Source: Candidatus Flemingiibacterium sp.
GTDB taxonomy: Bacteria > Bacillota > Clostridia > Oscillospirales > CAG-272
Reading direction: 5' to 3'
Assembly (NCBI GenBank): GCA_045636145.1
Contig: JAZTWV010000047.1
Coordinates: forward strand, 11,101-75,100
DNA: 64,000 nucleotides
Part shown: positions 9,059 to 60,115 of the stretch, one piece after another
How positions within the stretch are numbered: the first letter of the stretch is position 1
How the letters are laid out: each line of letters starts with the position of its first letter
The notes under the pieces: model-generated
Seen by the model: the letters and a program-made list of their open reading frames with translations, nothing else
Told to the model about the DNA's origin: nothing
The model's database searches: none
Program-made: the position numbers and the translations under genes

Positions 9059-9991
9059 ATGAACATATACAGATCTTTTGGAGAACTTATAGGAAAAACG
9101 CCTCTTTTTGAGACAGTGCATTACGGTACAGAACATAATCTTACGGCAAAAATATTCGCAAAGCTTGAATATTTTAATCCGGCAGGCAGTGTTAAGGACA
9201 GAGCGGCTCTTTATATGATAAATGACGCCGAAAAAAGCGGCAGACTTAAGCCGGGTGGGACGATAATAGAGCCTACAAGCGGAAATACGGGCATAGGACT
9301 TGCGGCAGTTGCCGCTTCACGCGGATACAGGGTCATACTTACCATGCCCGATACCATGAGCGTGGAACGCCGGACTCTGCTTGGCGCTTACGGAGCCGAG
9401 CTGATCCTTACAGACGGCAAACTCGGTATGTCGGGTGCCATAGAGAAGGCGAGGGAGCTTGCGGCGCAGATTGACGGAAGCATAATAGCGGGACAGTTTG
9501 AAAATCCGGCAAATGCTATGGCGCATTATGAGACCACAGGTCCTGAGATATGGGAGGATATGGACGGCAAGGTCGACATATTCGTTGCCGGCGTTGGAAC
9601 GGGCGGCACTATCACGGGAATCGGCAGATATCTTAAAGAGAAAAATCCGAATGTAAAAATAGTTGCCGTAGAGCCTGCTTCCTCACCTATGCTTTCCAAG
9701 GGAAAGAGCGGAGCACACGGGCTTCAAGGCATCGGAGCGAATTTTGTGCCGGATATACTCGATGTATCGCTTCTTGACGAAATTATAACCGTAAACGAGA
9801 AAGAGGCATACGGTGCCGCAAGGGCACTTGCAGGGAGCGAGGGAATCCTTGTGGGAATTTCTTCCGGTGCGGCTCTCCATGCCGCAGCCTTGCTTGCAAA
9901 GCGTCCGGAGAATGCAGGACTAAGTATCGTGGTACTGCTTCCGGATACGGGCGACAGATATTTGTCAACACCCCTTTTTGACGGTAAATAA
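9059..9991 (+). CDS. cysK: Cysteine synthase A (O-acetylserine sulfhydrylase)
   Basis: 310 aa. PLP-dependent fold with [19 protein letters not shown] and [10 protein letters not shown] motifs. SD GAAAGGAAG. Confidence 0.9.
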
Positions 9992-24790: not shown

Positions 24791-24877
24791 AAATAAACGG
24801 CAGGAGCAAGCCCCTGCCCTACAGAATACCATAAATCTCGGTTGTAGGGCGGGGGCTTGCTCCCGCCGTTTTATTTT
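24791..24877. repeat. REP-like inverted doublet, copy A
   Basis: Arms are CGGCAGGAGCAAGCCCCTGCCCTACA (24798-24823) and TGTAGGGCGGGGGCTTGCTCCCGCCG (24843-24868). They are flanked by aaaataaa / ttttatttt and lie between convergent nrdG and carB-dapF. Confidence 0.8.
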
Positions 24878-32239: not shown

Positions 32240-32307
32240 CGGCGTGAGCAAGCCACGCCCTGCAATCCGTGTTTAACAGTTTGTAGGGCAGGGGCTTGCT
32301 CCTGCCG
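32240..32307. repeat. REP-like inverted doublet, copy B
   Basis: Arms are CGGCGTGAGCAAGCCACGCCCTGCA (32240-32264) and TGTAGGGCAGGGGCTTGCTCCTGCCG (32282-32307). They lie between the convergent lipoprotein and ROK genes. Confidence 0.8.
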
Positions 32308-32333
32308 TTTCTTGGCGGACGTTTATCTGTAGT

Positions 32334-41473: not shown

Positions 41474-41553
41474 CCGTAGGGCAGGGGCTTGCTCCTGCCG
41501 TTTGTGTAGATGAAAGTGATATTAGACGGCGGGAGTAACCCCCCGCCCTACGG
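41474..41553. repeat. REP-like inverted doublet, copy C (units in the opposite relative order)
   Basis: Arms are CCGTAGGGCAGGGGCTTGCTCCTGCCG (41474-41500) and CGGCGGGAGTAACCCCCCGCCCTACGG (41527-41553). They lie between the convergent ferredoxin and SLH genes. Confidence 0.8.
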
Positions 41554-46991: not shown

Positions 46992-47020
46992 TTGACTTTT
47001 GCACCAAAAAAATGTATAAT
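46992..47020 (+). promoter_or_regulatory. nusB promoter TTGACT-17-TATAAT
   Basis: TTGACT at 46992-46997, TATAAT at 47015-47020. Confidence 0.65.
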
Positions 47021-47100
47021 ATATTATGTGTAGCTATTTCTATGTATAATCATGCGGTGATCCTCCAAAAAAGAGGGCACAGCATATATGAAAGATGGTC

Positions 47101-47137
47101 TGAAAGGAAGCTTTCGCTTCGCGAAAGCATTGGTTAT
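47101..47137 (+). promoter_or_regulatory. SD-hairpin leader motif, copy 1 (upstream of nusB)
   Basis: TGAAAGGAAGCTTTCGCTTCGCGAAAGCATTGGTTAT. An 8-bp stem (GCTTTCGC/GCGAAAGC) with a 3-nt loop lies between GAAAGGAA and the ATG at 47143. Confidence 0.6.
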
Positions 47138-47142
47138 TTGCA

Positions 47143-47598
47143 ATGGAAGAAAACATCAAAGCTCCGATAACACGTCATACGGCGCGCGAGTATGTATTTG
47201 CGCTCCTGTTTGCAAGGGCGTTCTCTCCGGATGAGCCGGCAGATGAATTTTACGCCCTTGAGCTTGAAAATGCCGAGATAGAGTTCGGAGATCAGATAGA
47301 TTATGTTCACGACGTATTTTTCGGTATCACGGACAACCTTACCGAGATAGACGAGAAAATTTCCGCGGCGGCAGAGGGATGGGCACTCAGCCGTATTGCC
47401 AAGGTTACACTTGCAATTATGCGCGTGTGCGTTTTTGAAATGATGAACGTCTCCGATGTCCCGAAGCGCGTTGCTCTTAACGAAGCGGTGGAGCTTGCAA
47501 AGAAATATGACGACGATAATGCTCCGGCGTTCATAAACGGTGTACTTAACACAATTTCACACGCTTTGCCTGACCGTCCCTGCGATATTGATTCATGA
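47143..47598 (+). CDS. nusB: Transcription antitermination factor NusB
   Basis: 151 aa. TRHTAREYVFALLF... and NGVLNTI motifs. An in-frame stop at 47101 leaves this ATG as the only possible start. Confidence 0.9.
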   Translation: MEENIKAPITRHTAREYVFALLFARAFSPDEPADEFYALELENAEIEFGDQIDYVHDVFFGITDNLTEIDEKISAAAEGWALSRIAKVTLAIMRVCVFEMMNVSDVPKRVALNEAVELAKKYDDDNAPAFINGVLNTISHALPDRPCDIDS

Positions 47599-52242: not shown

Positions 52243-53103
52243 TTGAAAGCTATCGGAATATATCAGGATCCCAAAAACGATGTGGATTTTCTCGGAACAC
52301 TCAGGGTAATAAACGCGCTTGGCGGCAGGTGGCAGGTGATTATGCACCGCTCTCTTCGGGATAAGCTGTGTGCCGCACTCAGTGATGATGTGTGCCGTGC
52401 CATATACTTTGCGGATGATGCGGAGCTGTTCAGTGCACCCGACATGATGATCGTGCTCGGCGGCGACGGAACAATACTCAAAGCCGCGCGAAGCTGTGCC
52501 GCAGGAAATATACCGATTCTCGGAATAAATCTCGGGCGTATCGGCTACATGGCGGAGCTTGAGCTTGACGAGCTTTCAGCTTTTGACAGGCTCCAGAGCG
52601 GTGATTATAAAGTAGAGCGCCGCATGATGCTTGAAGCGGATATAGGCGGTGAGCGTCTGTTTGCACTTAACGAAGCCGTGGTTGGCGGCGCGTCAATTTT
52701 CCGCATTGTGGAAATTGAGCTTTACTGCGACGGCAAGCCGGTGAACTCCTACAGAGCGGACGGACTTATCGCATCCACCCCAACAGGCTCTACCGCATAC
52801 TCAATGTCCGCAGGCGGTGCGGTGGTTGACCCGCGCATGGAGGCACTTCTCATAACGCCAATATGTTCCCACTCTCTTAATGCTACGCCGCTTGTGTTTT
52901 CCGCAGAGTCGGAGCTTCGTATGAAAAACATTACGGTGCGTGAGGAAAAGCTCTATATAAATATTGACGGCTGTGAGACTAGGACGCTTTCTTTCGGAGA
53001 ATCGGTGACATTTCGCCGCTCTGCTGAGACAGTAAGCTTTATACGACTTAAGGACGGCGGATTTTATGATGTGCTCCGTCACAAAATGGCGGACAGACAC
53101 TAA
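52243..53103 (+). CDS. nadK: NAD kinase
   Basis: VLGGDGTIL and NLGRIGYM motifs. TTG start. Confidence 0.85.
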   Translation: MKAIGIYQDPKNDVDFLGTLRVINALGGRWQVIMHRSLRDKLCAALSDDVCRAIYFADDAELFSAPDMMIVLGGDGTILKAARSCAAGNIPILGINLGRIGYMAELELDELSAFDRLQSGDYKVERRMMLEADIGGERLFALNEAVVGGASIFRIVEIELYCDGKPVNSYRADGLIASTPTGSTAYSMSAGGAVVDPRMEALLITPICSHSLNATPLVFSAESELRMKNITVREEKLYINIDGCETRTLSFGESVTFRRSAETVSFIRLKDGGFYDVLRHKMADRH

Positions 53104-53115
53104 AGGGGAATTAGC

Positions 53116-53571
53116 ATGAAATACAATCGTCAGGCTGAGATAATATCTATAATCAGTGAAAATCAAATAGAGACCCAGGAAGAATTGTCAGAATGCCTCA
53201 GACAAAGAGGCTTTATGGTTACACAAGCTACGATTTCAAGAGATATCCGCGAAATGAAGCTTGTTAAGGTTGCCGGTGGTGGCAAGTATGTGTATGCACT
53301 GCCGCAGACTGAGGAGCGCGGTATCAGCCAAAAGGCACGAAATCTTCTTGTGGAGACTGTGGAAAATGTAGACCGTGCCAACAATATTGCGGTTGTAAAA
53401 ACCTATGCCGGTATGGCACAGGGCGCGGCGGCTGCCATTGATTCCATGGGTCGCTCGGATATTGTGGGAAGCGTTGCGGGGGATGACACGATCATTATCG
53501 TAATGCGTACAAACGATGCGGCGCAGTCACTTTGCGATGAGCTTTGTGAAATAGTAAACGGCGGAAGATGA
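53116..53571 (+). CDS. argR: Arginine repressor
   Basis: 151 aa. RQAEIISIISENQIETQEELSECL...VTQATISRDIREM, and a C-terminal GDDTIIIV motif. Confidence 0.9.
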   Translation: MKYNRQAEIISIISENQIETQEELSECLRQRGFMVTQATISRDIREMKLVKVAGGGKYVYALPQTEERGISQKARNLLVETVENVDRANNIAVVKTYAGMAQGAAAAIDSMGRSDIVGSVAGDDTIIIVMRTNDAAQSLCDELCEIVNGGR

Positions 53572-58146: not shown

Positions 58147-59019
58147 GTGGGTGATAAAACGGTGGAAATTTTAATTATAACAGGTATGTCCGGTGCCGGA
58201 AAATCCCAAGCGGCAAATACACTTGAGGACCTTGGCTGGTACTGTATTGACAATATGCCTGCAAGGCTTATTGTCAAGTTTGCGGAGCTTTACCGCGCCG
58301 CATCGGAAAAAATTGAAAAAGTAGCGTTTGTTATGGATATCCGCGGCGAGGCGGAGTTTGAGACTTTGTTTTCGGAGCTTGATGCGCTGAAGGGACAGGG
58401 GGTCAATTGCCGTACTGTATTTCTCGACTGCTCGGATGAAGTAATAATAAGCCGCTATAAATTTACACGCCGCACCCATCCTCTTGTTACGGCGAAAAAC
58501 ATCAGCATTTCGGATGCACTTAAAGCCGAGCGCGACATACTGTCTGTTGCCGCGATGCGTGCCGATTACACGATTGATACCACCAAGCTTACTCCGGCGC
58601 AGTTAAAGGATAAAATCTGCGGTGTGGTAAGTGCGGCAGTAAGAAACGGTATACTTGTAACCTGTATGTCATTCGGATTCAAGCACGGTGCCGCAAACGA
58701 AGCGGATCTTGTGTTTGATGTGAGATGCTTCCCGAATCCCTATTATTACGATGAGCTTAAGGAGCATACCGGTCTTGAAGCCTGCGTGAGAGATTTTGTG
58801 TTCTCACACGAGGAGACTGTGACGTTCACAAGCAAGCTTTACGACATGGTGGACTACCTGCTTCCTTTGTATTCAAAAGAGGGCAAGGCACAGCTTATTA
58901 TCGGTATTGGCTGTACAGGCGGAAAGCACCGCTCGGTAGCTATCACAGAGGCACTTTCCGCACATATCAAAAATAGTGGCTACAATACGGTGACTATCCA
59001 CCGTGATATTACTAAATGA
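58147..59019 (+). CDS. rapZ: RNase adapter protein RapZ (YvcJ)
   Basis: ILIITGMSGAGKSQAANTLEDLGWYCIDNMP and ...IGCTGGKHRSV. The start may be the GTG at 58162. Confidence 0.9.
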   Translation: MGDKTVEILIITGMSGAGKSQAANTLEDLGWYCIDNMPARLIVKFAELYRAASEKIEKVAFVMDIRGEAEFETLFSELDALKGQGVNCRTVFLDCSDEVIISRYKFTRRTHPLVTAKNISISDALKAERDILSVAAMRADYTIDTTKLTPAQLKDKICGVVSAAVRNGILVTCMSFGFKHGAANEADLVFDVRCFPNPYYYDELKEHTGLEACVRDFVFSHEETVTFTSKLYDMVDYLLPLYSKEGKAQLIIGIGCTGGKHRSVAITEALSAHIKNSGYNTVTIHRDITK

Positions 59020-59051
59020 TCTGTCGGGACTACCCGATACTGTGGGAGAAA

Positions 59052-59084
59052 GTCTGAAAAATAAATTTTTCAGACAGTGTTTTG
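59052..59084 (+). terminator. AT-rich perfect hairpin after rapZ (possible weak terminator)
   Basis: GTCTGAAAAAT-aa-ATTTTTCAGAC, followed by AGTGTTTTG. Confidence 0.35.
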
Positions 59085-59160
59085 TGGCTTACATCGCCGT
59101 TCCGGCAATGTTTTGCTTCGCAAATCAGCCCCGAACTCCATGCGATGCTTTGCATCGCTT

Positions 59161-59197
59161 TGAAAGGAAACTTTCGCTACGCGAAAGCTATGGTTAT
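59161..59197 (+). promoter_or_regulatory. SD-hairpin leader motif, copy 2 (upstream of whiA)
   Basis: TGAAAGGAAACTTTCGCTACGCGAAAGCTATGGTTAT, 33/37 identical to 47101-47137, ending 3 nt before the whiA ATG. Confidence 0.6.
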
Positions 59198-59200
59198 AAA

Positions 59201-60115
59201 ATGTCATTTGCACAGGAAACCAAGGTCAGCCTTATCGCACATTCCGAGAGTGTGAAGCACGAGTGCTGCCGAAAGGCTGAGCTTTACGGTATACTGTACA
59301 CCGCAGGAATATTTTCCCGTGACCGTCTGAAGCTTGTTACCTCCTGCGAGGAGCTTGCGGAGCTTACGGTGAAAAAACTGCGGGATCAGTACCGTATTGA
59401 GGGTAATTTATATATAACGGAAAAAAAGAGCGGGGATGCGGATGAGCGCAGAAGCTGTAAAATAACCGTCCCCCAGAAAAAAGAGCTTTCAAGACTGTTT
59501 CACGGTCTTAAATATACAGAGGACGAGCCTGAACAGAATCTTAAAGAGGAGATGCTTAGGTGCGGTAACTGTCGGGCGGCGTTTTTGAGAGGCGTATTCT
59601 TATCCTCGGGTACGGTTACAGACCCGGGTAAGAGCTATCATCTGGAGCTTGACTTTACCTGTTCGCAAACAGCGGATAATATTCATAGCCTGCTTTCAGA
59701 GTGTGGTCTTGAACCAAAGCACACCTCCCGTAAGACTGAGCACGTGCTCTACTACAAGGACAGCGAGAGTATTGAAAGCTTTCTCGCGTTTATAGGAGCT
59801 ACGGGTGCCGCATTTACCATAATGAACAAGAAGATTGAGCGTGAGCTTCGAAGTGATGCCAACCGTCTTGCAAACAGTGAGCTTGCCAATATCGGCAAGA
59901 CTATTGCGGCGGCAGGGGATCAGCTTGCGGCTATAAATACGCTTAAGGCGGCAGGCGCACTGGAGCTCATGCCGGACGAGCTTAGGATAACCGCTTATCT
60001 GCGGCTGGAAAATGCGGATGCAACGCTGGCACAGCTTGCGGCACTGCATGATCCGCCCATAACCAAATCGGGTGTAAATCACCGTCTTAAGAGAATAATG
60101 GCATGGAAGCCGTGA
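59201..60115 (+). CDS. whiA: DNA-binding protein WhiA
   Basis: Start MSFAQETKVSLIAH...ECCRKAELYGIL matches the canonical WhiA N-terminus. LAGLIDADG-like core and a C-terminal HTH (KSGVNHRLKRI). The ORF-track extension back to 59003 is rejected. Confidence 0.9.
   Translation: MSFAQETKVSLIAHSESVKHECCRKAELYGILYTAGIFSRDRLKLVTSCEELAELTVKKLRDQYRIEGNLYITEKKSGDADERRSCKITVPQKKELSRLFHGLKYTEDEPEQNLKEEMLRCGNCRAAFLRGVFLSSGTVTDPGKSYHLELDFTCSQTADNIHSLLSECGLEPKHTSRKTEHVLYYKDSESIESFLAFIGATGAAFTIMNKKIERELRSDANRLANSELANIGKTIAAAGDQLAAINTLKAAGALELMPDELRITAYLRLENADATLAQLAALHDPPITKSGVNHRLKRIMAWKP

Follow-up and report, generated by a model that had tools for sequence, protein, structure and literature searches.

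The REP2/CREN repeats of Neisseria and the IR repeats of Borrelia plasmids are dispersed sequences of 120-150 bp that have no terminal inverted repeats, contain internal stem-loops and lie directly upstream of open reading frames (ORFs); REP2 carries a promoter, a ribosome-binding site (RBS) and an ATG joined to the following ORF, is present in about 20-26 copies per genome and is unexplained in its origin and spread (PMC3184786). A precedent of another kind is bacteriophage T4, in which a hairpin cuts the distance between the Shine-Dalgarno (SD) sequence and the start codon from 22 nt to 5 in gene 38 and from 27 to 11 in gene 25, and in which mutations of the stem reduce initiation (PMC3014915). 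The current report concerns an element of ~140 nt that resembles both, two copies of which lie in front of the nusB and whiA genes in a stretch of 64,000 nt from Candidatus Flemingiibacterium sp. (GenBank assembly GCA_045636145.1, contig JAZTWV010000047.1, positions 11,101 to 75,100); we refer to this whole stretch as the window, and coordinates given for it are on its + strand. The original work on the REP2/CREN and Borrelia IR repeats is said to be that of Parkhill 2000 and Morelle 2003, and that on the split RBS of T4 is said to be that of Nivinskas 1999 and of Malys and Nivinskas 2009. Based on the comparisons presented below, we consider it rather probable that the element is a structured, multi-copy and lineage-specific insert which keeps its host gene translated by means of a split RBS, composed of a strong SD sequence (SD1) and a hairpin (P4). 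To judge from the copies compared, its relatives form a new family of dispersed, RBS-bearing elements that are placed with nucleotide precision at start codons. A literature search found no earlier description of this repeat family, which does not prove that none exists.

In organisation the closest known analogue would be REP2, the likeness being one of organisation only and drawn from published description. Like REP2, the element is of similar length (~140 nt), shows no terminal inverted repeats in our alignments, occurs in at least 22 copies in one metagenome-assembled genome (MAG) and stands directly before ORFs, to which it brings SD1 and, in 75 of 109 listed copies, a start codon of its own (AUG1). 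It differs from REP2 in several respects: REP2 has a promoter, whereas no sigma-70-type promoter was seen in the whiA copy or in the copy L016, and operon-internal sites account for most copies; its structure includes a three-way junction that covaries, a 5' hairpin resembling a terminator, and another hairpin that separates SD from start; and it belongs to another phylum and precedes genes without a common theme. With T4 genes 38 and 25 it shares an SD sequence and a start codon that are too far apart linearly and a conserved hairpin between them. The T4 cases are, however, single loci with residual distances of 5 and 11 nt, whereas in the present family a split RBS would form the portable end of a repeat, leaving 14 nt up to the ancestral ATG or 1-3 nt up to AUG1.

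Insertions in front of nusB and whiA

An earlier note on this DNA, made from the letters alone, had singled out two 37-mers, TGAAAGGAAGCTTTCGCTTCGCGAAAGCATTGGTTAT (47101-47137) and TGAAAGGAAACTTTCGCTACGCGAAAGCTATGGTTAT (59161-59197), as a conserved leader motif of nusB and whiA. Both are found at these places and are identical at 33 of 37 positions, with one of the four mismatches inside the loop; they end 5 nt before the ATG of nusB (47143) and 3 nt before that of whiA (59201), and they contain hairpins of 8 and 7 bp, respectively, each with a 3-nt loop. The nusB frame has an upstream stop, TGA at 47101, 42 nt before its ATG. The whiA copy is open in the whiA frame, such that an ORF of 370 aa (59003-60115) runs from a GTG inside the end of rapZ across the element, and gene callers could mis-start whiA because of this read-through. 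In shuffled sequence the expected number of 37-mer matches with no more than 3 mismatches is 0.00; taken by itself, the 17-nt hairpin core, found 2 times against 0.35 expected, is not significant, since 9 of 100 shuffles reach 2, and it is the extended match and the more than 100 copies elsewhere that give the motif its weight.

Other genes in the window mostly use GGAGG, AAAGGAGG or GAAAGGA as SD, for which the aligned spacing is 5-10 nt, and the SD-like sequence at the 5' end of the motif does serve as an ordinary SD elsewhere, as GAAAGGAAG and AAAGGAAG at the ORF at 9059 and at dnaE (60154). The statement that neither nusB nor whiA has an SD within 20 nt of its ATG is nearly right, except that GAAAG, in the 3' arm of the hairpin, sits 13-15 nt upstream. 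The earlier note had overlooked that the displaced native SDs of both genes survive upstream of the motifs (GAAAGATGG at nusB and GGGAG at whiA, Table 1).

Homologs of NusB and WhiA were collected by homology search and the contigs of uncultured Clostridia that carry them were compared; exact-protein look-ups of the NusB and WhiA of the window gave no match. Throughout the orthologs at 71-84% protein identity, an ordinary SD stands 4-7 nt before the same ATG. At nusB, where gene order is the same in the compared relatives, orthologs of 84% and 78% identity read ...ATATGAAAGAGGTCTTGTATG, with the SD GAAAGAGG at 7 nt from the ATG and without the motif; the window has kept the old SD, followed by the motif of ~40 nt. 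A promoter lies upstream of the nusB motif (Table 1), which thus falls in the 5' untranslated region (UTR). The spacer between rapZ and whiA measures 35-37 nt in relatives with 81% and 71% WhiA identity, as against 181 nt in the window. The empty sites of these two relatives (L225 and L227) read GGAGATGTC and GGGAGGAAGCC, each directly followed by ATG and with the native SD 4-5 nt before it, and the insert is carried by the window and a 99% relative (L224) in the form of GGGAGAAAGTC, 146 extra nt and ATG. Because empty sites with a normal SD exist in relatives, the nusB and whiA copies have, on this comparison, entered between native SD and start codon in a lineage-specific way.

A 97% relative (L001) differs from the window at two sites. 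At nusB it has a full-length copy where that of the window is shortened, the latter being an internal-deletion derivative in which the last ~40 nt are retained. At argR it has an extra copy, and the corresponding sites of the window (53103-53116), of L224 and of more distant relatives have a spacer of 12-20 nt and no copy. The extra copy is of a diverged type (B, see below) and lies between the NAD-kinase gene and argR (11716-11839 of L001). The empty argR site of the window ends with AATTAGC directly before the ATG, and the same heptamer precedes hairpin 1 in B-type copies (L028, L048 and L068); this could be chance or the footprint of a loss.

These observations contradict the idea of a conserved nusB/whiA leader, as the motif is absent upstream of the orthologs of both genes. 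The suggestion of a regulator common to the two genes fares no better, since the motif precedes more than 100 functionally unrelated genes, and we regard the gene-specific interpretation as refuted by the sequence comparisons. The same absence at orthologs and the heterogeneity of the downstream genes are also not what a metabolite riboswitch or gene-specific leader would show.

A dispersed repeat family in gut Clostridia

A scan for an exact pattern (AGGAANCTTTCGCNNNGCGAAAG) over one genome per species returned at least 118 stretches. Nine of the 118 listed are unrelated look-alikes from Planctomycetaceae, Pirellulaceae, Saccharibacteria, Mesorhizobium and one Clostridia locus; our set of copies consists of the remaining listed loci together with the window and L001. 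There are at least 114 family copies in about 57 MAGs of Clostridia (labelled Candidatus Flemingiibacterium, Eubacteriales, Oscillospiraceae, 'Lachnospiraceae' or Clostridia), whose sources are deer, goat, horse, yak, chicken, rabbit and human gut. The MAG with at least 22 copies, CAZXAU01, encodes a WhiA that is 43% identical to that of the window. Nothing similar was found in collections of plasmids, phages and viral contigs.

The copies stand in gene orientation throughout, and a long co-oriented ORF follows 109 of the 114 listed, with its ATG 8-22 nt past the hairpin, so that this is not a generic repeat at arbitrary places. The ATG lies exactly 14 nt past P4 in 84 of these 109 copies and at 13-15 nt in 98, and the 14-nt spacing is seen also in copies that have no AUG1. 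The downstream genes are unrelated, including those for CysRS, ProRS, MreB, ParB, chorismate synthase, thymidylate kinase and an EngB-type GTPase, as well as Maf, NIF3, D-Tyr-tRNA deacylase, IF2, a Cu-ATPase, an ABC transporter, GH106, helix-turn-helix (HTH) regulators and others. Most insertions occupy operon-internal junctions, with a same-strand upstream ORF ending no more than 120 nt away in 36 of the 46 full copies listed from loci L001-L125 and the window. The 5' end of the element, NTGAAAAATAAA, contains stop codons in two frames, and in 8 of the 46 (a set that includes L117, L053, L039, L040 and L017) the upstream ORF ends at the TGA of the element, as if an ATGA start/stop overlap had been kept.

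Copies from the same genome have subfamily-specific stems and loops in common, and at least two subfamilies (A, and B with a P4 of UCUUUGC/GCAAAGA) coexist in single MAGs. Truncation from the 5' end gives a graded series in which SD1 and P4 are the surviving part, and in front of the infB genes of different species SD1 and P4 are kept while the flanks have diverged. One contig (L091, 4360-4497) contains a tandem pair in which the second copy begins exactly at the expected gene ATG position of the first. About 35 human-gut metagenome contigs (L130-L220, for example 5222-5262 of L178) carry a short-form copy in front of a 151-aa ORF (MKLAEALQERADLN...) of a widespread organism; its P4, CTTTCGC/GCGGAAG, has a G-U pair.

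Anatomy and RNA structure of the element

The length of full copies hardly varies from ~140 nt, and the 37-mer described above corresponds to their 3' end. From the native SD onward they consist of AAGTY, hairpin 1 (for example GTCTGAAAAAT/ATTTTTCAGAC), NNN-UUUUGUGG, hairpin P2, GA and hairpin P3 (UUUUGC-NNN-GCAAAA), followed by CCAGCCMCAAUUCC-N'N'N', SD1 (AGAAAGGAAG), P4 (CUUUCGC-NNN-GCGAAAG) and CYAUGGUCAUAAnn-AUG. The triplet and UUUUGUGG after hairpin 1 pair with CCRCAAUUCC-N'N'N' before SD1, forming a long-range helix, P1, that encloses P2 and P3 in a three-way junction. P1 covaries in its body (UUGCGG/CCGCAA, GUGA/UCCC and, in one subfamily, CCUUUUGUG/CACAAAAGG) as well as in its outer triplets (GCG/CGC, GUG/CAC, GGG/CCC and CGG/CCG), and the junction nucleotides of P1-P3 are conserved.

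The structure was drawn by hand and with a covariance model; hairpin 1 and P1 went undetected by RNAalifold on the unprocessed MAFFT alignment. In the MAFFT alignment 90.8% of the cells pair, as against 35-47% with slid partners, and 23 of 41 pairs have changed on both sides. The alignment to the covariance model (R1, 113 sequences), which is fitted to the model and leans towards the structure, gives 91.6% against 33-49% and 35 of 40 pairs changed on both sides. Hairpin 1 together with GUUUUGU scores as terminator-like. P4 was flagged as a terminator on both strands, but was rejected as one in view of the lack of a U-tract after it in the family. In Rfam 15 the whole window had no match at gathering score, the whiA copy gave noise only (E up to 10) and A-type and B-type copies gave nothing (E up to 1); ribozyme readings (hammerhead-like CUGA...GAAA) were ruled out, there being no Rfam match.

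The tail after P4 is ATGGTCATAAAT in A-type copies and ATGGTAATTAAA in B-type copies (4835-4975 of L108, 6586-6726 of L008, 4360-4497 of L091 and 11707-11844 of L001). The two forms have three differences, all at third codon positions of the AUG1 frame (MVIN versus MVIK). From this wobble pattern AUG1 may be translated, although the signal is weak within the large set; we make no claim of coding potential for the tetrapeptide, for which the pattern is suggestive between the subfamilies only.

SD1, P4 and the start codon

The 3' tail of the 16S rRNA of Firmicutes is AGAAAGGAGG, to the complement of which the consensus of SD1 matches at 9 of 10 positions. The positions of SD1 that lay outside the search pattern (-27 to -24) are 83-99% conserved among the 114 listed copies. 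The stem of P4 comprises 7-8 bp (centroid energy -11.6 to -14 kcal/mol), whereas the P4 loops are hypervariable, with at least 35 different triplets. The scan pattern fixed the P4 stem, and its near-invariance is therefore partly a matter of ascertainment; as a remedy, metagenomes were scanned with a stem-agnostic pattern (AGAAAGGAA-N19-22-ATGGTCATAA) and searched with the covariance model. The stems known in consequence include the compensatory variant CTTTGGC/GCCAAGG, ACTTTGC/GCAAAGT, GCTTTCG/CGAAAGC, TCTTTGC/GCAAAGA and the G-U form of the human-gut organism mentioned above. In one full-length copy (L162) P4 has been swapped for a GC-rich hairpin, GGGGCTGTTTAAACAGCCCC (GGGGCUGUUUAAACAGCCCC), with SD1 and the tail kept, and the eighth pair of P4, also outside the pattern, is G-C in 36 copies, A-U in 5 and G-U in 2. 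On account of the compensatory variants, the changes at the eighth pair and the replacement hairpin, P4 is judged from its sequence variation to be under selection as a structure.

P4 is followed by C-N-ATGGTCATAA-NN-ATG. AUG1, 2 nt past P4, is in frame with the gene and open in 62 of the 75 copies that have it, out of frame in 10 and followed by a stop in 3; it is absent in 28 of the 109 by count. In the whiA copy it is an AUG situated 11 nt before the gene's ATG and out of frame, in the nusB copy its position is taken by a UUG (Table 1), and both sequences agree with the independent assemblies L001 and L224. The linear distance from GGAA to the ATG is 33 nt for nusB and 31 nt for whiA, the latter being also the family consensus; with P4 folded, both are reduced to 14 nt, and the 20 nt to AUG1/UUG1 are reduced to 1-3 nt. 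A literal split SD, in which AGAAAGGA and GGUCAU would both pair with the 16S tail, was considered and rejected, the completing base G at d=7 being the rarest there (3 of 114 listed copies).

These features would fit the following scheme. An insertion between the native SD and the ATG moves the native SD to a distance of ~45-150 nt from the ATG, and the element might compensate for this with its own strong SD, followed by P4 and a fixed 14-nt tail that abuts the ATG of the gene. Folding of P4 would remove ~17-19 nt from the path and bring SD1 within reach of the start region, in a split RBS like those of T4 genes 38 and 25, by which the host gene stays translated, and the in-frame AUG1 of the consensus might be a fail-safe that adds MVIN or MVIK. 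The preservation of the 14-nt distance in copies without AUG1 and the retention of SD1 and P4 at infB suggest that it is the ancestral ATG that is served. Element-bearing genes, many of them essential, persist with the insertion.

The earlier proposal that the hairpin, when folded, completes a split RBS thus holds in outline, in view of the fixed distance to the ATG, the nearly invariant SD and the compensated stem, except that 14 nt still remain to the annotated ATGs. We consider the split RBS plausible and strengthened by these data yet unproven, with a geometry that is imperfect for nusB and whiA. Several observations weigh against it. The residual 14 nt exceed the 5 and 11 nt of the T4 cases, and the geometry suits AUG1 better (1-3 unpaired nt from SD1), yet 47 of the 109 listed copies, both window copies included, lack AUG1 or have it blocked or out of frame. 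Most P4 stems were found by a pattern that fixes the stem, and unbiased variants number about a dozen. The 3' arm of P4, GAAAG, is itself SD-like, as a rival model would have it, and in the minimum-energy fold of the whiA fragment on its own, SD1 is paired with the 5' arm of P4, which leaves P4 unformed. Finally, we found neither a transposase nor terminal inverted repeats or a target duplication, and the argument for an actively mobile element is for this reason a comparative one.

Alternative explanations

The SD-like character of the P4 3' arm opens an alternative, in which GAAAG is the working SD, masked by the CUUUC of the 5' arm, and SD1 is a high-affinity standby or loading site or else pairs with the same 5' arm, such that translation of the host gene would be throttled or conditional, for example on temperature. 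In SD-sequestering RNA thermometers a U/C-rich strand pairs with the SD near the start, and standby sites offer a flanking single-stranded stretch that binds the ribosome; the present element would share both, with its CUUUC strand opposite GAAAG near the start codon and a flanking stretch of this kind, although these are regulators of single genes without a second, stronger SD before the hairpin. GAAAG, 13-15 nt before the ATG, has an aligned spacing of ~9-11 nt, within the range of the window genes, most of the unbiased P4 variants have a purine-rich 3' arm (GAAAG, AAAG, AAGG or GGAAG), and the P4 stem varies far less in sequence than do the stems of hairpins 1-3. The conservation of the 14-nt distance between hairpin and ATG in copies without AUG1 is likewise compatible with this scheme, as is the minimum-energy fold of the whiA fragment, with UGAAAG paired to CUUUCG around a GAAA loop. 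On the other hand, GAAAG alone is a weak SD, the uniformity of the stem stems in part from the search pattern, and the hairpin that replaces P4 in L162 has no SD-like 3' arm, with SD1 and the tail retained; altogether we believe a sequestered SD to be unlikely. Quite improbable, in our estimate, is a coupling through an upstream ORF (uORF), whereby ribosomes would load at the displaced native SD, start at an NTG in hairpin 1 (the old start place), terminate at the UAA of GGUCAUAA and begin anew at the gene ATG, 2 nt on. An NTG does lie 4-8 nt past a GGAGG-like sequence in 29 of 46 listed full copies, 35 of 51 listed copies have this frame open over the entire element (11 of them ending exactly at the TAA, d=9), and one subfamily shows three separate 1-nt deletions that together amount to 3 nt (141 versus 144 nt). 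However, the supposed start is CTG in ~40% of copies and has the covariation of a stem position, not of a codon, early stops occur in 16 of the 51, one open frame of three over ~115 nt is not unusual, and short copies of the nusB type, which lack such an ORF, still keep SD1 and P4.

A site for a trans-acting regulator, protein or small RNA, that would co-regulate all element-bearing genes as a regulon spread by the repeat, a scheme that has been proposed for REP2/CREN and that would generalise the second idea of the earlier note, might account for the conservation of the P1-P3 junction nucleotides and of the tail AUGGUCAU, for which there is no obvious reason, and REP2 repeats do precede 14 co-induced genes (PMC3184786). 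We nevertheless hold this to be very improbable: the genes are housekeeping genes of unrelated pathways, copies have been gained or lost between 97% relatives, and the short nusB copy has no junction, while the hypervariable loops (the at least 35 of P4 among them), the freely covarying stems of hairpin 1, P1, P2 and P3 and the replaceability of P4 argue against recognition of a specific hairpin sequence. Lowest of all we rate a purely selfish repeat acting at the DNA level, whose hairpins would be recognised as single-stranded DNA (ssDNA) by a transposase or recombinase, in the manner of REP/RAYT or IS200/IS605, and whose SD would be incidental. Genome-specific subfamilies, presence/absence polymorphism and several local palindromes without terminal inverted repeats are what such a repeat would show; against it stand the strict co-orientation with the gene at a fixed distance from the ATG, the conservation of SD1, the tolerance of G-U pairs in stems, the need of essential genes (those for aminoacyl-tRNA synthetases, infB, mreB) to be translated after losing their native SD spacing, and the old, 5'-decayed copies that retain SD1 and P4 alone.

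Relation to mobile elements and significance

With the REP/REPIN-RAYT and IS200/IS605 systems the element shares richness in hairpins, the lack of terminal inverted repeats and of target duplication, and oriented insertion, but its end hairpins are unrelated to each other and it has no GTAG-type head; no conserved target of 4-5 nt is apparent at its three empty sites. Like miniature transposable elements with inverted repeats (MITEs) and the Correia elements (CREE), it is small, non-coding, multi-copy, structured, polymorphic between strains and of a kind that can alter the expression of neighbours, but it is strictly oriented and fixed to the nucleotide relative to the start codon. Unlike the ends of a MITE, its own (AAGTYTGAAA... 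and ...GGTCATAAnn) are not inverted repeats, and three pairs of occupied and empty sites show no duplication. Inspection by eye for integron attC sites, dif/Xer sites and target-site duplications found the core motifs or duplications absent.

The family might represent a new type of mobile DNA that homes to translation-initiation sites: ~140 nt without a protein gene, folding into a three-way junction as RNA or ssDNA, integrating precisely between SD and start by an undescribed mechanism, and neutralising its own insertion with a portable split RBS, stops for the upstream gene and an in-frame start. This possibility, which we entertain as a tentative and rather doubtful one, could involve targeting by anti-SD-like CUUUC strands that pair with SD sequences, or by way of an RNA intermediate.

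What had appeared as a motif of two genes is a genome-wide phenomenon in a clade of uncultured gut Clostridia, and if the split RBS is real, dozens of essential genes would be translated from an imported and hairpin-interrupted RBS. Compensation of the SD-start distance by a hairpin has so far been documented only for two genes of T4, and the more than 100 natural variants of SD, hairpin and start would be a ready mutational series on such compensation in Firmicutes. Precise placement at start codons without the hallmarks of a transposon points to an unknown targeting mechanism which, if solved, could also explain the puzzle of the Neisseria REP2 repeats. For annotation, the element would account for seemingly 'SD-less' genes, for misplaced starts (extensions of the MVIN type and the 370-aa whiA ORF) and for inflated intergenic spacers.

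Features in the window

Table 1. Element copies, their parts and the adjoining genes and signals in the 64,000-nt window
Feature	Position	Strand	Remarks
nusB promoter, TTGACT-17 nt-TATAAT	46992..47020	+	common to relatives
Displaced ancestral nusB SD, GAAAGATGG	47090..47098	+	relatives: GAAAGAGG, 7 nt from ATG (alignment A1)
Short, 5'-deleted element copy in nusB 5' UTR	47101..47137	+	absent in relatives of 84% / 78% NusB identity
SD1 of nusB copy, GAAAGGAAG	47102..47110	+	
P4 hairpin of nusB copy, 8 bp, loop TTC	47110..47128	+	centroid structure -11.6 kcal/mol
UUG at family AUG1 position (2 nt past P4)	47130..47132	+	13 nt before nusB ATG, out of frame
nusB ORF	47143..47598	+	NusB (PF01029, 2.4e-31; Pfam)
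Displaced native whiA SD, GGGAG	59044..59048	+	
Hairpin 1, GTCTGAAAAAT/ATTTTTCAGAC, then GTGTTTTGT; intrinsic-terminator-like	59052..59075	+	9/9 pairs covary in family
Full-length copy, 146 nt, between whiA SD-plus-spacer GGGAGAAAGTC and whiA ATG	59055..59200	+	empty-site comparison; covariance model 109.8 bits
P1 5' strand, long-range helix, GUG-UUUUGUGG	59077..59087	+	covaries with 3' strand
P2 hairpin, CATCGCCG-TTC-CGGCAATG	59092..59110	+	8/8 pairs changed on both sides in family
P3 hairpin, TTTGC-TTC-GCAAA	59112..59124	+	
P1 3' strand, CCCCGAACUCCAU	59129..59141	+	covariation
Optional extra hairpin, GCGATGC-TTT-GCATCGC	59142..59158	+	only some copies (L009, L073, L109)
whiA 37-mer: SD1 59162-59169; P4 59171-59187, 7 bp, loop TAC; AUG1 59190-59192	59161..59197	+	
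whiA ORF	59201..60115	+	WhiA (PF02650, PF14527; Pfam)

Other repeats

The window contains a second, unrelated family of repeats, GTAG-headed and GC-rich palindromes (GTAGGGCAGGGGCTTGCTCCTGCC) at 24804-24871, 32243-32310 and 41476-41503, two of which are inverted doublets ~20 nt apart, REP/REPIN-like and with T-runs after them. Among the look-alikes returned by the exact-pattern scan, those in the Planctomycetaceae MAG SYJV01 (L054, L055, L060, L099 and L110) belong to an unrelated repeat of ~90 nt with long terminal inverted repeats (TACTACAGCGCG...CGCGCTGTAGTA), which is like a classical MITE and contains CTTTCGC-GGA-GCGAAAG by chance.

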